Of a DNA stretch of 64,000 nucleotides, positions 27,751 to 39,430 are shown piece by piece; the stretch's first letter is position 1; each line of letters starts with the position of its first letter. The DNA comes from Ruditapes philippinarum (lineage: Eukaryota): the NCBI RefSeq assembly GCF_026571515.1, contig NW_026854272.1, forward strand, positions 124,001-188,000, in the 5' to 3' direction. Both the position numbers and the translations under genes were made by a program. Below the pieces are notes generated by a model. That model was given only the letters and a program-made list of their open reading frames with translations. It was not told where the DNA came from and did no database searches.

Positions 27751-28498
27751 ATGAACAAATTTCTCATAATACGTTGGGTGAATTTCAATAATGGGCATTT
27801 ATTCTATTCAATTTCTAACTGTCCATTAAGAATTTCAATGTCAAGACAATGGAAGTGGGCAATCAACAGTGTACAGTATGGTGGGTGCCTGTCCTTGCTC
27901 TATATTGGTGACAGACAATTTACTGTTAACACTCAAAAGGCTGAATCTATAAATGACGAATATATTAATTTAAAATTTAAAGAAAGTTATTGTACTTTCT
28001 CAAAAACTTTACAATGGAAATGTTTCATTTCCAAAGACTTCTTTAAGTTATTTCTGAACACAATTTTGTATCAATTGTGTTGATTTATAATCAAATATTA
28101 CTCAAAAGAGTTTTCTACAAAGAAAAGCCATTTAATTTAAAAATAAAATGCTACTTCTAGCATAAATACTGACCTTAAGTGGTGAAAGTTTGCAGTTTCT
28201 GAACTTCTTACTGGTCAATGTTCTACCAGCATTATAAGTCATCAACTCCAGCATTTCTAGGCCATTAACCGGATCAGACATAGAATTGCCCCTCAATATC
28301 TCTACAATCTGTATTTCACTATTGTCATATATATAATATAGTCATTCTATATTTATATTATATTTGAGATCTCTCATAAATTATGTAATGGCAGTTCCTA
28401 TCACAGATATGGCAAATATAGTTCACTGATTTGAAGAATAAGAATTGAGCTTTGTCACACAAAATTGAACAAATTGTCAAGGTATTCAACCCTCAAAA

Positions 28499-28926
28499 TC
28501 ACAAAAGATCCTCTATGGAATGCAATGTGTAACTCCCTGACGTCGTAGTTGAGCAATCATCATCCTCTTGCGAATGTTTACGATAGTGGGCGTCACGCGC
28601 CAAGAAATATGCTAAGTCATTCTGAGCAATTACACTATTTGATTTGATTGGATGATTAGAATGAGGCTGAGTATGTTGCCATGACAACATATTTGGGTCA
28701 AGGACAGAAAGGTCATTGTTTAAATGAAGGGGCGCACTTTGATATTGTCTGTTATTTTGTAGATAGCTTTGGTTATTGTTAAATGATCCATATGGTTTGT
28801 ATGTCCGACATGGAATTGGAGGAGGTACAGCACTGTAGTTATCTGCCCTTGATGGCACTAGTTTACTAGGAGCAGACGGCATTGATATTTTCACAGGTAC
28901 AGCATAATCAAATATTTTCTGGTCAT
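28499..28926 (-). CDS. Protocadherin terminal cytoplasmic exon 3 (DDQKIFDYAVPVKISMPS...EDDDCSTTTSGSYTLHSIEDLL*)
   Basis: Acceptor ttaattttcag|AT at 28926 completes the phase-1 codon G|AT and is in frame with ORF 28499..28894; TGA at 28501-28499. The acidic DDDxSTTTSGSY motif resembles invertebrate protocadherin tails. Repaired protein is about 1120 aa. Confidence 0.88.
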
Positions 28927-29932: not shown

Positions 29933-30161
29933 CATGTGACGGTGATGCACTTGTGACTTCCTCCTCACTTGCTCCTCGGCCACTATCCCCGCTACTAGTT
30001 TCTCCCGATGTTTCGCTCCGACTATCGTCAGGATTTGCATGCACAGCTTGTTGTTGTTGTTTAGCAATCTGGAGCATTCGTTGGATTTTAAGATTCTCTA
30101 GTCGGGTCGACACTTTATCATAAAGATCCTGGGTGCTGTCACTTTTCTCAAGTCGAGGGGG
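29933..30161 (-). CDS. Protocadherin cytoplasmic exon 2 (PPRLEKSDST...SGDSGRGASEEE...SPSH)
   Basis: Acceptor tttttacag|CCC and donor CATG|gtaagt. 229 nt, phase 0 to phase 1, in frame with the previous exon. Contains DSGRG, which resembles the CM1 motif of delta-protocadherins. Confidence 0.9.
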
Positions 30162-30772
30162 CTGTAAAAAAATAAATTTCAGTCTTATAAAAACACTTGA
30201 CTTAAACAAACATCTTCAATTTTATAGCACAATATTTAACAAAATGAACTTGCCCACCTTCCAGTTTTGGAACTGTCCATAATCAATTATGGGAATCTCC
30301 AGGTGAAAATATGAAGTTGGTCAGTCAACAGTTTAGAGCCTGGTCAGACTGAATGTGAAGTGCAGTCTGGACTGGCTCCACATATACTGGTGGCAAAGGT
30401 TGTACCAGCAGGGTAAATTTTAAAGTGGCATATAAATTAAAATTTTATTGCTATATAATAAATCATTTGGCTATCATAGATAGTGTGTATTGTTTATGGA
30501 ACACTTTTGTCAAAAACAAACAGAACAGTCAGTTATCAGGCTTAATAAACACTTAAATTAGTTTAGATAAAGAGGGAACAGATTTTGTGCTGAAACAAGT
30601 AATTTAATTTAGATTTATTTGTATTTTTTAGCTTTATGTTTCAGGGAATTTGGGTCATTGACAAGTTTCTTAGCTTTTCCATTAAAAAAACTACAGTTAT
30701 TTCACTTTGATTATTTATGCTTAAGAGCAAATTTTTTTATTTTATTATTTATATGAAATCTTATAAAATTAC

Positions 30773-33474
30773 CTTTTCTGGTGAATACTGTATAGGATTT
30801 GGGGCTTTGCTAACTTGCATATCTAGATGTTGGTAGTTACTCATGGAATCGTGGTCATCAAGTGAGAAGCTTACTTCTTTCTTCTTCTTGCCAATGTCCG
30901 AACCTGGCATAATAAAGTCTGTGCTAGATTCTCCTGTGTTATTCATAATGTACACCGTTTGTTTATTAGCGTACATATTATCATTTCTAATATTTGCACT
31001 TTCAGACAGTTTTTTCTTACGATCCATTGTTCGAAGAAGAAAGATAACTCCGATGATGACAGCCGAAAGTAAAATCGTCACTATAACCACAACAACAACA
31101 ATAACGACAAATTTACTACTTTCACTTGTAATTCCTTCATAGGTGGCGTTAGTGTAGATAACATTGACTATAAGTTCAGCTGTAGAGGAAAGACTTACGG
31201 CCCCCCTGTCACGTACTTCAATCAACAGTGCTATCGATATGTCCTTTTCAATAACTACTGTGTTATCTGCAACAGTGATTATTCCCGATTTTTCATCAAT
31301 TTTAAACAGTCCTAATTCATTCCCCTTAGTTATACTGAATCTCAGCGTACCATTTTCACCAGCATCAATATCATGGGCTTGAATATGTGTTACGATTTCA
31401 ACGTCTTCTGTAGGGTAGTAGAGGGTCGCAGTTTTATTTTTGTTACTTTTTGTAGGGAATGTTATGTTTGGTCTGTTATCATTAACATCGTTAACAATTA
31501 TTGTTACCGGAACAGTACTTGCCAAGGCAGGACTACCTTGATCAGTTACGGTAACATTAAAAACATATCTACTTTGAACTTCACGATCAAGTGCCCGATT
31601 TGACTGAATAACGCCATCAGTAAAAATATGGAAAGGAATTTTTCTGTCAATGAAAGTGGACGAAAGCGAAAAAGTAAACATTCCATTGGCACCAATATCT
31701 GCATCCGTGGCTGCAACTTCATTTACTGATGTACCAGAATTCAAATTTTCCAGTATTTCAAAAGTGTAACTTGACTGGGTGAATTTTGGGGCATTGTCAT
31801 TCATATCTTCAATGGTCAAAGTCACTGTCGCTGTGCCAGTCAGCGGCTTTTCTCCAGAGTCTATAGCTAACACTTCAAATGTTACAACTGGTGTAACTTC
31901 ACGATTAAAGAATGGCTTGGCTGTTATAACTCCTGTTACAGAATCAATCATTATTTTATCCTGGTTTCTAACCTCGTAGTGAATTCTTTTGTTAATACCT
32001 ATATCTTTATCAGTTGCAGTAACTTGAAGAATAACTTTGTTGGTCATTGTATTTTCTGGAATCTTAGCTTTATAATTTCTATATTGAAATTCAGGATGCT
32101 TGTCATTAAAGTCTGTTACTCGTACAAGGAAACTTACGGATGAATTAAGAGGTGGATTTCCTCGATCAGAACAAACAGCGGTTACATTATGTAGGTCAGT
32201 CACTTCACGATCTAAGGTATTTGATACAACTACTTTATAGGCTTCTTCCTCGAGCTTCACAACATCAAAGAAACTATTCGAAACTGAGCAGTTAACTTGT
32301 CCATTAGCCCCCGTATCTGAATCTTCAACAGTAATGTGGGCAACAAAATATCCAATTTTTGAATTTTCCGAAACATTAACAAATCTAATATTCCCAGGTG
32401 AGAGTAGACTGAGGGTGATTTTTGGAGGATTATTTCCGGTATCGGTGACATAGATATACACATAGACCTGAGAAATCTGTCTCCACCATCCAATGCTTCA
32501 ACAATAAAGCTGTAATGGAAGTCCGATTGAAAAACCAGCTTATCGATGGCCACTTTTATTTCACCAGATGTCTCATTTATTGTTAGGTCTTTAAGAACCT
32601 GCGCAGATGACCTTTCATTCATTTGATATGTAACAACACCATTTTCACCTATATCTTTATCTTCAGCATGGACTGTTAGAACAGTTGACCCTCTTGGTGT
32701 CCCCTCTTCCACAGAAACATTATATACTGCATGATCAAAAATAGGTTTATTATCATTTATATCAGTAACAACAATGTCTACAATCAGAACTCCGGACTTT
32801 GGCGGGTTCCCTCCATCTTTAGCCACAATTCTGACCTGATAAGATGGCGTAACCTCTCTATCCAGTAGTGTCTTCACAACAAGTTCCACCTTGAATGTTC
32901 CATCAAGAACTTTTTCACTTACTAATCTAAATGTGTCACTTGGTGTTTCTAGGTCATAGCTTTGGATACCATTGGTTCCACCAGTGTCTGGGTCATCGGC
33001 ACTTGGGAGAGGGATCCTACTATCTACAGGAGCTCCTTCCGACACTTTGATTTCAATACGATTATCCGTGAACATTGGTGCATTGTCATTTATATCCTCA
33101 ATAACGACTTTCACATTGATTGTTTGATAGAACTGTCCATCCGTTTTAGCAGCCACCTTAAAATCCAATTCACATTTTGAGTCACTATACGTCTGACAAA
33201 TGGATTCCCTGTCCATTTTCACCATTGTGAACAGTTCACCAGTTTCACCATTCAAGGTAAAGTACTGAGCATACGTATTCATTAAAAAACTAAATCGTAA
33301 AGAATCTCTTTCGGCTTCCGGAACATTCAAGGTAACATTAGCAAGACTTCCTATTCTAATGCCTGTATCTTGTTCGTCTATAACTTTAAAGGTCACAGAA
33401 GGAGGAGCCTCTTGAGTGAAGGTCAAGGATACCAATGCCAAGGTTGTTAAGATGAGAGTGATCGAAGTCGCCAT
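30773..33474 (-). CDS. Protocadherin (7 EC repeats, delta1/PCDH1-7-9-11-like), large first coding exon: signal peptide, EC1-EC7, TM, juxtamembrane tail; interrupted by a frameshift at ~32477
   Basis: ORFs 32257..33474 and 30761..32461 join into one cadherin chain. ATG in strong Kozak context (ATCACCATGG) and hydrophobic leader MATSITLILTTLALVSLTFT. Ca-binding linkers DINDNAP, DINDNKP, DTGNNPP, DFNDKHP, DMNDNAP, DVNDNRP; DRE/LDRE and AxDxG motifs; Cys pair in EC1 (DRESICQTYSDSKC). TM FVVIVVVVVIVTILLSAVIIGVIFLL at ~31034-31111. Donor AAG|gtaatt after 30773 (phase 0). A single-exon ectodomain is typical of protocadherins. Confidence 0.95.
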
Positions 33475-33518
33475 GGTGATGAACTGTTAACCTTTATTCA
33501 ATCTGTCATAATTTGGTC
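33475..33518 (-). other. 5' UTR part of the first coding exon (spliced leader, so upstream non-coding exon(s) are implied); contains 3-codon uORF MTD* at 33509-33498
   Basis: Acceptor ttataatttcag|GACC at 33518; ATG ACA GAT TGA lies upstream of the main ATG. Confidence 0.6.
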
Positions 33519-33571
33519 CTGAAATTATAAATGAGATTAAATTTAAAATTCATTATTCAGTTAAGATTCAC

Positions 33572-33870
33572 TTTTGGAAATATTCATAGACAAATCATTA
33601 AATTGGAAATATTCATAGAAAATTCATTAATTTGAAAATATCTATATTAAGCCATCATTAAATTTGGAATATTCATAGAATATTCATTAATTTGGAAATT
33701 TTTATAAAATTATCATTGAACTTTGAATAATCATAGAATAAATTATTATCCTTAATTTGGAAATATTTATAAAATTATTTTTAAATTGGGAATATTTGTA
33801 GAATATTCATTAATTTGGAAATATTTATAAAATTATCATTAAATTGGGAATATACATGGAATAATCATAA
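33572..33870. repeat. AT-rich minisatellite (~28-30-bp unit, ~10 copies) in the intron next to the protocadherin acceptor
   Basis: Repeated ttggaaatattcatagaaaattcattaa variants. Confidence 0.85.
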
Positions 33871-35084
33871 AAACATTCTTAAATGTAATGATAATGAAAT
33901 AAAACATTTTACGGTTATATAACTATTGTACAATTTGTAATTCTGATACAGGGGCTTAATCACAGGGCATGAAGTCCATTCACAATCATTTTATTGACAA
34001 TTATATGGGATAAAAAATGTGATCATAAATAAAAAAATGTTTTTCATTACAAAAAAAAGGAAACATTATTTAAAAGCTTTAAAGCAAATGTTTGAATCTG
34101 GCTTAACTTTCGTTATCCCATCTTGAACCCTTGAAATCTTATCATGTGTTCAAACATTATTGAATTGTTAAAATCACAAAATATCAGCGAGGGCTTCCCG
34201 TGCGGGGCATTGATCAGGAACAGTGAAAGTAGTGTAAGTTTTATGTACATAATAACCGGGAATAAAGAGCACGATGACAGCAAAAGATGTTTGCCAAGCC
34301 TTTAACTTTCAAACCTCCGACAATTTCGATACAAACTTTATTAAAGTTGAAGAGCAAGGCAAATAAACGGCTAATAATACGTGGAGATTATTATTCCACT
34401 TTCTTAGAGCTGATTTATCATCGACAACTCAAATATTTCTAATTAGTGACAGCCTTTTACACCTATAGTAGATTTGAAGTTAAATCTTTAACAATTTAAA
34501 CGATAATCCAATCAGGACAATTTGTTGACATAAATTGTAGCACTAAATCCTAAAATCCATGCCCCCAGTGATGGCAGATTTTCATTTCATTTTGCACAAT
34601 AAAACATTTTCCTACCTTAAAAATTTACATTTTCCTATTCTAAACTATTTTCAGGCCTTTTCAGACCTATCAATAATTAAACAAAACATAAAAGGAATAA
34701 AATAGTAAACTTCCAAAGAACTTCATTTTCAATACATATTTTATATGTAAATTATGATTAATGAAATGATACAGTGCAACATTCTAAAATCCAAAGAGAG
34801 AAAAAAGAGAAAAGAAAATGTACCTTTTGCCAATTTATACACATAAACATACAATGCACACACAATTTTATTTCCAGTTATAAATTCAGTGTTCACACTT
34901 CAGGACACAGTAGAATTATGGTTTATTAAATTTTATCTCAAGTTGACAAATAACGTCAAGTACTTTTTATGGGCCCTAAATTATTGCTGTAAAAACAAAG
35001 GGCCCCGTTATAAAGATAAGATGCCTCAAATGGCTTCACATTTAGAATTCCTGCCTTGTTTTTATGCTATCATAAAGTTGTCAC

Positions 35085-37713: not shown

Positions 37714-39430
37714 ACAAGAGGGCCATGATGGCCCTGAGGTCGCTCACCTGTATATAGGCCCCCCAACCCCCCCCCCCCCCAACGTTGCAGAGCCAATTTA
37801 ACCCAAGGGCTTTTATTTGCACAAACTTGGTAGACACCCATAAGAAGATGTTTCATGCTAAACATTTAAGCTCTAGCTCATTGGGCTTTTTAAAAGAAGA
37901 TTTTTTTAAAGTTTTTACTATACACATATAGTTAAAAACAATGACACCCCTGGGGCCGGGCAAGTTTTGACCCCAGGGCTTTTATTTTATTTCAACTCTA
38001 GCTATTTGGGTTTTTTCAAAGAAGATTTAAAGTTTTTGCTAAACACATATAAAAAAAATCAATGACCCCGGGGCGGGGCCAATTTTGACCCCTGGGCTTG
38101 TATTTGAACAAACTTGGTAGACACCTATAAGAACATGTTTGATGCTCAATATCTTGGCCAAAGCTCTTTGAGTTTTTTAAAAGAAGATTTTTTAAGTTTT
38201 TACTATATGCATATAGGGAAAATCAATGACCCCCCGGGGCGGGGCCAATTTTCACCCCAGGGCTTTTATTTGAACAAACTTGGTAGACACCCATTAGAAC
38301 ATGTTTCATGCTAAATATCTTAGCTCTAGCTCTTTGGGTTCTTTAAAAGAAGATTTTTAAGTTTTTACTATATGCATATAGGGAAAATCAATGACCCCCA
38401 GGGGCGGGGCCAATTTTGACCCCAGGGCTTTTATTTGAACAAACTTGGTAGACACACACTAGAAGATGTTTCATGCCAAATATCTAAGCTCTAGCTCTTT
38501 GAGTTCTTTAAAAGAAGATTTTTTAAGTTTTTACTATATGCATATAGGGAAAATCAATGACCCCCGGGGCGGGGCCAATTTTCACCCCAAGGCTTTTATT
38601 TGAACAAACTTGGTAGACACCCATTAGAACATGTTTCATGCTAAATATCTTAGCTCTAGCTCTTTGGGTTCTTTAAAAGAAGATTTTTTAAGTTTTTACT
38701 ATATGCATAAAGGGAAAATCAATGACCCCCCGGGGCGGGGCCAATTTTGACCCCAGGGCTTTTATTTGAACAAACTTGGTAGACACTCACTAGAAGATGT
38801 TTCATGCCAAATATCTTAGCTCTAGCTCTTTGAGTTCTTTAAAAGAAGATTTTTTAAGTTTTTACTATATGCATATAGGGAAAATCAATGACCCCCGGGG
38901 CGGGGCCAATTTTCACCCCAAGGCTTTTATTTGAACAAACTTGGTAGACACCCATTAGAACATGTTTCATGCTAAATATCTTAGCTCTAGCTCTTTGGGT
39001 TCTTTAAAAGAAGATTTTTTAAGTTTTTACTATATGCATATAGGGAAAATCAATGACCCCCCGGGGCGGGGCCAATTTTGACCCCAGGGCTTTTATTTGG
39101 ACAAACTTGGTAGACACTCACTAGAAGATGTTTCATGCCAAATATCTAAGCTCTAGCTCTTATGGTTTTTTAAAAGAAGATATTTAAAGTTTTTTCTTTC
39201 GGTTGCCATGGCAACCAGAGTTTTGCATGGAATTAAATTCTTTGAACAATTTTTAAAGGTGACCACCAAAGGAACATTCCTGTGAAGTTTGGATGAAATT
39301 GGCTCAGTGGTTTATGAGGAGATGTCATTTAAAGTAAAAGTTTACGGACGGACGGACGGACGACGGACGGACGCCGGACGAAAAGCGATCACAAAAGCTC
39401 ACCCTGTCACTTTGTGACAGGTGAGCTAAA
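37714..39430 (-). mobile_element. Helentron-associated non-autonomous element (HINE/pearl-like) carrying a 165/166-bp tandem array
   Basis: In minus orientation: sub-TIR AGCTCACCTG with its inverted partner, (CGTC)n microsatellite (~39345-39380), central tandem repeats, CAGGTGAGCG sub-TIR, terminal palindrome AGGGCCATCATGGCCCT; inserted in an A/T run. Confidence 0.9.
38221..39195. repeat. Six near-identical 165/166-bp monomers arranged (AB)3, preceded by ~3 diverged monomers from ~37780
   Basis: aatcaatgacccc recurs at 38221, 38386, 38552, 38717, 38883 and 39048. Confidence 0.95.

Follow-up and report, generated by a model that had tools for sequence, protein, structure and literature searches.

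The window analysed here, a stretch of 64,000 nucleotides from the Ruditapes philippinarum assembly (contig NW_026854272.1), carries one protocadherin gene on its minus strand, and no second locus was found by tblastn within these 64 kb. A large coding exon of ~2.75 kb (30773..33518, minus strand) contains the ATG at 33474, the signal helix, seven cadherin repeats, the transmembrane (TM) helix and the start of the cytoplasmic tail; its upstream boundary is marked by an acceptor AG at 33520-33519, and two RNA-type contigs cease aligning at 33520/33521, with more letters beyond. The cytoplasmic tail continues in a second coding exon (29933..30161, minus strand), which is delimited by contig joints and matches P0002 at 95% in tblastn, and in the coding part of the last exon (28499..28926, minus strand; 74% to P0002), which ends with HSIEDLL and the stop codon. 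The two coding introns, of 611 and 1006 nt, are both bounded by GT..AG, and splice joints are present in contigs at the predicted sites 30161/30773 (run X7) and 28926/29933 (runs X5, X7 and X10), in agreement with an earlier reading of the letters (hereafter the first-pass annotation), in which all splice sites were considered intact. The gene is intact and spliced in each of the four other data sets that were compared.

Several features surround or interrupt these exons. At 33498-33520 (minus strand), RNA-type contigs whose alignment stops at the acceptor AG at 33520-33519 carry up to 613 extra letters, which implies one or more upstream 5′ UTR exons beyond the part of the window that was compared with the runs, and a three-codon upstream open reading frame starts on the minus strand at 33509, 35 nt ahead of the main ATG. 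A 2-nt insertion polymorphism is located at 33485 in the 5′ UTR, 11 nt upstream of the ATG; it is present in X5 (at partial depth) and X7 and absent from X1 and X10. Directly upstream of the large exon lies a tandem array with a 29/58-bp unit (33573-33872), and farther upstream a second array (37996-39194) consists of ~7 copies, 92% alike, of a 165/331-bp unit. Within the 611-nt intron, positions 30242-30355 correspond to a fragment of a high-copy repeat, at which the summed contig depth exceeds 1000 in 4/4 runs and many loose ends occur. Six or seven substitutions are clustered within 12 bases right after the stop codon (28481-28492) in X5, X7 and X10 relative to the window, X1 having no coverage there.

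By its domain composition, as read from the sequence, the product is a protocadherin, which may be termed delta-1-like by repeat number only. Pfam Cadherin matches occur in 2 + 4 stretches, together with a Cadherin_2 match for EC1; six repeat-end motifs precede the seventh repeat, and calcium-binding motifs are present. The AlphaFold model of P0123, the closest protein (mean pLDDT 80.9), contains an N-terminal helix (2-18), seven beta-rich repeats and a helix at 789-827. Pfam, the motifs and this model thus agree on seven repeats. The arrangement of a signal peptide, a single TM helix and a tail is likewise found, the hydrophobic stretch and the tail being visible in the window sequence and the signal peptide being judged from the helix in the P0123 model. 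The tail carries KEVSF at residues 866-870 (~30880-30860, minus strand), and KKKEVSFS belongs to the consensus drawn from 56 mollusc homologues; KEVSF fits an RVxF-like docking pattern for phosphatase-1. Protocadherins are described as having six or seven extracellular cadherin repeats, and the delta-1 group (PCDH1/7/9/11) as having seven, as is found here, together with the cytoplasmic motifs CM1-CM3 including RRVTF (PMC6339937). The vertebrate RRVTF is not present as such in the clam tail, KEVSF being there instead.

The nearest relatives of the gene are other clam protocadherins with seven repeats, namely P0123 (85-90%), P0002 (60-75%), Mactra antiquata KAL4230018.1 (60-68%) and Mya arenaria P0081 (39-55%), and over the segment downstream of the break discussed below the best named relatives are those of Mactra antiquata (68%) and Mya arenaria (‘protocadherin-9-like’, 55%). 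The gene resembles these proteins in its full length (~1040-1120 aa), its seven repeats and TM helix, and a tail with KKKEVSFS and the C-terminal DDDDCSTTTSGSYTLHS. Among solved structures, the top match is protocadherin gamma-B4 (PDB 6e6b, E 3.8e-98), most of the top 25 matches are protocadherins, and PCDH10 and PCDH19 are also among the best relatives by sequence; the number of repeats is that described for PCDH1/9/11 of the vertebrate delta-1 group (PMC6339937). Mollusc protocadherin families are described as lineage-specific expansions, a point of difference from the vertebrate proteins, and the present gene fits in among them as an ordinary mollusc protocadherin (PMC9068888). Listings of the literature on clam protocadherins and on the loss-of-function load of bivalves yielded no paper on this gene.

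The reading frame is broken in EC3, as was described in the first-pass annotation. The minus strand at 32490-32467 reads gat ggt gga gac aga ttt ctc agg; the frame opened by the ATG at 33474 (frame -2) passes ALDGGD, continues through 74 foreign residues and terminates at 32257..32259 (minus strand), to give a product of 405 aa, whereas the cadherin frame picks up again in frame -1 as RQISQVYVYIYVTDTGNNPP. When full-length relatives are used as tblastn queries, the frame changes at this same break. The coding segment ahead of the break (32485..33474, minus strand; 330 codons) includes the signal peptide, EC1, EC2 and EC3 to strand F and is 85% identical to P0123; the large-exon segment behind it (30773..32482, minus strand; 570 codons) includes the last strand of EC3, EC4-EC7, the TM helix and the KEVSF motif and is 90% identical to P0123 (514/571), starting with RQISQ vs KQISQ. 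Neither segment contains a stop, and when the break is closed a protein of 330 + 1 + 788 = 1119 aa results. Calcium-dependent homophilic adhesion is a mark of protocadherins, and with the base restored the product is likewise predicted to be an adhesion receptor that depends on calcium.

Comparison with contigs from four runs (one per study, contigs only; 20 of 24 listed runs contain part of the stretch) defines the size of the loss. Two of the listed runs, each with a small share, bear the label mollusc metagenome. An extra base relative to the window occurs in 4/4 runs, each time at the total local depth: T is inserted behind 32481 in X1 (8.73 of 8.73), and C is inserted behind 32482 in X5 (54.5 of 54.5), X7 (69.9 of 69.9) and X10 (9.8 of 9.8). 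The lengths of the contigs agree, with one letter more than the corresponding window places in each (260/259, 197/196, 317/316 and 1022/1021). On the coding strand, X1 reads GGT GGA AGA CAG and X5, X7 and X10 read GGT GGG AGA CAG, both of which encode Gly-Gly-Arg-Gln, whereas the window has GGT GG AGA CAG. The window is therefore one base short (32481..32483, minus strand) at the silent third position of the Gly331 codon, ahead of the AGA codon for Arg, and this position is polymorphic among the intact alleles (GGA/GGG). The lost base belongs to an AA pair in the GGA-AGA allele or to a GGG run in the GGG-AGA allele, so that the earlier statement that the site is not a homopolymer does not hold for the intact alleles. 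No contig with the window's form at 32481/32482 was found in the four runs, of which X1 is DNA-type and shallow and the other three are RNA-type; contigs lose rare variants.

In the first-pass annotation, a loss of ~7 nt had been proposed, with some three residues gone from the EC3 turn, on the understanding that the DGGxPxL spacing is needed in each repeat. The span between the EC3 aspartates (D329-D345 in P0123) comprises 17 residues in 50/56 homologues, 19 in four and 15 in two; the 56 aligned sequences were chosen as the closest full-ectodomain matches among 236 proteins found. The turn in most homologues is thus two residues longer than in the one-base-longer form, which favours the larger deletion, but within the organism itself the runs depart from the window by exactly one base. 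A turn two residues shorter is moreover found in P0123 (DGGKQISQ), in the more distant P0128 and in gamma-B4, and it lies in an open frame in P0123, which reads gap-free against the one-base-longer form. EC3 of gamma-B4 (6e6b) aligns without a gap over the short turn, and in the P0123 model a five-residue turn is placed between strands 321-328 and 334-344 with a pLDDT of 87-89. The presumed spacing does not hold for this EC3, and a 7-nt deletion is refuted. With the base restored, the window's species also has 15 residues between the EC3 aspartates, and its F-G turn (32470-32490, minus strand) reads DGGRQISQ; in this respect it differs, together with P0123, from 50/56 homologues, orthology being assigned by similarity. 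The EC3 turn that is two residues short is, as judged from the aligned proteins, an older in-frame shortening (6 nt) in the working lineage, separate from the lesion, and the short turn of P0128 apparently arose separately. The window is 7 nt short relative to distant clams because the 1-nt loss is added to this older 6-nt shortening.

The frameshift is most likely an error of the assembly consensus in an intact 1119-aa, seven-repeat protocadherin. The likelihoods attached to this and the other explanations are matters of judgement and not computed values. The extra base is seen at full depth in 4/4 runs from four studies, and 0 contigs are without it. Across 260 bases, the intact contig of X1 has only one other mismatch to the window, and it agrees with the window at 32629, 32650 and 32674, sites at which the other runs differ; the haplotype nearest to that of the window is therefore intact. 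Elsewhere, X1 differs from the window at 31451 (at full depth) and shares its letters at many sites. The assembled animal may have been a GGA/GGG heterozygote, in which case a merged consensus could have kept neither letter: set against the window's form, each intact allele counts as a one-base insertion of its own, and neither would reach a majority. By another route, one A of the AA pair could have been lost from the GGA haplotype and left unpolished. The merging of haplotypes is described to have introduced indels at nucleotides that differ between haplotypes in a long-read assembly (Korlach et al., 2017, PMC5632298), and short consensus indels are described as the commonest error of CLR data and as a source of frameshifts (Rhie et al., 2021, PMC8081667). 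The present case is like these published artefacts in that a 1-base frameshifting indel falls on a nucleotide that varies between alleles, in a gene that is otherwise intact. It is unlike them in that the two alleles are documented in other runs, while the assembled animal is presumed to be heterozygous.

The first-pass annotation had left the choice between a recent loss-of-function allele and an assembly artefact; the four intact runs favour the artefact, and a rare private allele is the lesser option. Such an allele would be a real 1-nt deletion, probably heterozygous in the assembled animal, in which one A was lost from a GGA haplotype. The AA and GGG contexts favour real slippage too. The frameshift is faithfully present in the window sequence, the private missense G364R lies close by, rare alleles could be missing from contigs, and bivalves are described as having a high genetic load (bioRxiv 10.1101/2025.06.24.661118). 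Against this, the deletion occurs in 0/4 runs, the loss of a silent polymorphic base is the signature of a merged-haplotype error, and the gene contains no second stop or frameshift. With listed variable places at 2.7% of the stretch compared, a random real deletion would hit a polymorphic base with a probability of ~1 in 10 or less, a rough estimate that allows for an ambiguity of 2-3 bases. A real allele is unlikely but deserves some weight: RNA-type runs could deplete a null allele.

All but one of the four intact runs are RNA-type, and a 10-nt GT..AG stretch extends across the site, so that a real genomic frameshift might be thought to be repaired at the level of the RNA or the ribosome, by a micro-intron, insertion editing or programmed frameshifting. 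However, the DNA-type X1 is intact as well, and repair of any such kind is extremely improbable. As for the micro-intron itself, excision of the 10 nt gives the third frame and not the cadherin frame, and no joint is present there in the contigs.

It might also be supposed that the window represents a recently duplicated, disabled copy while the runs show its intact twin, or a pseudogene fixed in the population from which the window derives. An oyster is described as carrying polymorphic duplications, but a duplicate should yield DNA contigs without the base, and the DNA-type X1 gives none; in addition, X1 contigs match the introns of the window with 0 differences in 340 bases, and the 64 kb contain a single protocadherin locus. 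Relative to the runs, 153 places in 5601 bases are variable (2.7%). Among the 40 best-supported of these 153 differences, 14 fall in the 3′ UTR and 26 are coding, and 24 of the 26 coding differences are silent, vs 22% expected without selection (binomial p ~5e-14 for these best 40 of 153); this best-supported subset may favour common silent variants. This overwhelming silence speaks against both a duplicate and a pseudogene. Because the coding differences are mostly silent and the splice joints are seen, a fixed or old pseudogene is unsupported; a fixed unitary pseudogene would not be expected to show the lesion in 0/4 runs together with intact splice sites and no further stop or frameshift. 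A disabled copy or fixed pseudogene is thus very improbable.

The earlier statement that the gene has no other lesions is correct for stops and frameshifts but overlooks a private missense difference. At 32384..32386 (minus strand) the window has an AGA codon for Arg364, whereas 3/3 covering runs have Gly, X1 being without coverage. The G364R substitution (32386) sits 95 nt downstream of the break, at a residue that is Gly in 27/28 of the closest homologues and in 33/56 of the wider set. A second missense difference, Ala for Thr at 30970, concerns a variable site. If P0123 is taken as the outgroup, the window holds the derived state in both cases. Two derived changes in the window, one of them the private G364R, might indicate a null allele under relaxed selection and thus weigh against a consensus error. 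G364R itself may reflect a second consensus error, a polymorphism or the decay of a null allele; that it is a genomic difference restored in RNA by A-to-I editing is unlikely.

If the allele were real, its product would probably differ from the one first envisaged. The 405-aa length and the position of the stop ~1.5 kb before the next exon junction (1484 nt as computed) are confirmed, and the 74 foreign residues are near the ~70 first given; ‘EC1-3’ is nevertheless too much, since the final EC3 strand, 334-344 in the model of P0123, lies beyond the break. Because EC3 would be without this strand, a folded, secreted EC1-3 protein, as had been suggested, is doubtful according to the model. Nonsense-mediated decay (NMD) had been expected; in human, NMD is described as weaker for stops in exons of >400 nt (PMC12776119). 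Here the exon measures 2.7 kb and the premature stop is 1484 nt away from the junction, so that NMD is uncertain, the rule being a human one. It is very unlikely that a real segregating allele produces an mRNA that escapes NMD and a soluble EC1-EC2(-partial EC3) protein that disturbs the adhesion mediated by the intact protocadherin, G364R having arisen later on the dead haplotype. The exact 405-aa frameshifted protein is absent from a collection of 15 billion sequences, a weak negative since eukaryotic gene calls are patchy there; when proteins 30-496 aa long were searched with residues 270-400 of P0123 for short fragments across the site, 68 candidates emerged, none of them significant. The matches listed in two protein searches did not include a full-length protein from the species of the window.

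If the frameshift is a consensus error, as is likely, it is an issue of annotation only, and the gene counts as intact; wherever this assembly shows a frameshift at a polymorphic base, a check is then warranted before the loss of a gene is claimed. If it were a real private null, it would be of modest interest as one instance, affecting a conserved adhesion gene, of the loss-of-function load that bivalves are expected to carry. One small lasting fact emerges from the aligned proteins: in this lineage of clam protocadherins, the EC3 turn was shortened in frame to the length found in vertebrate gamma-B4.
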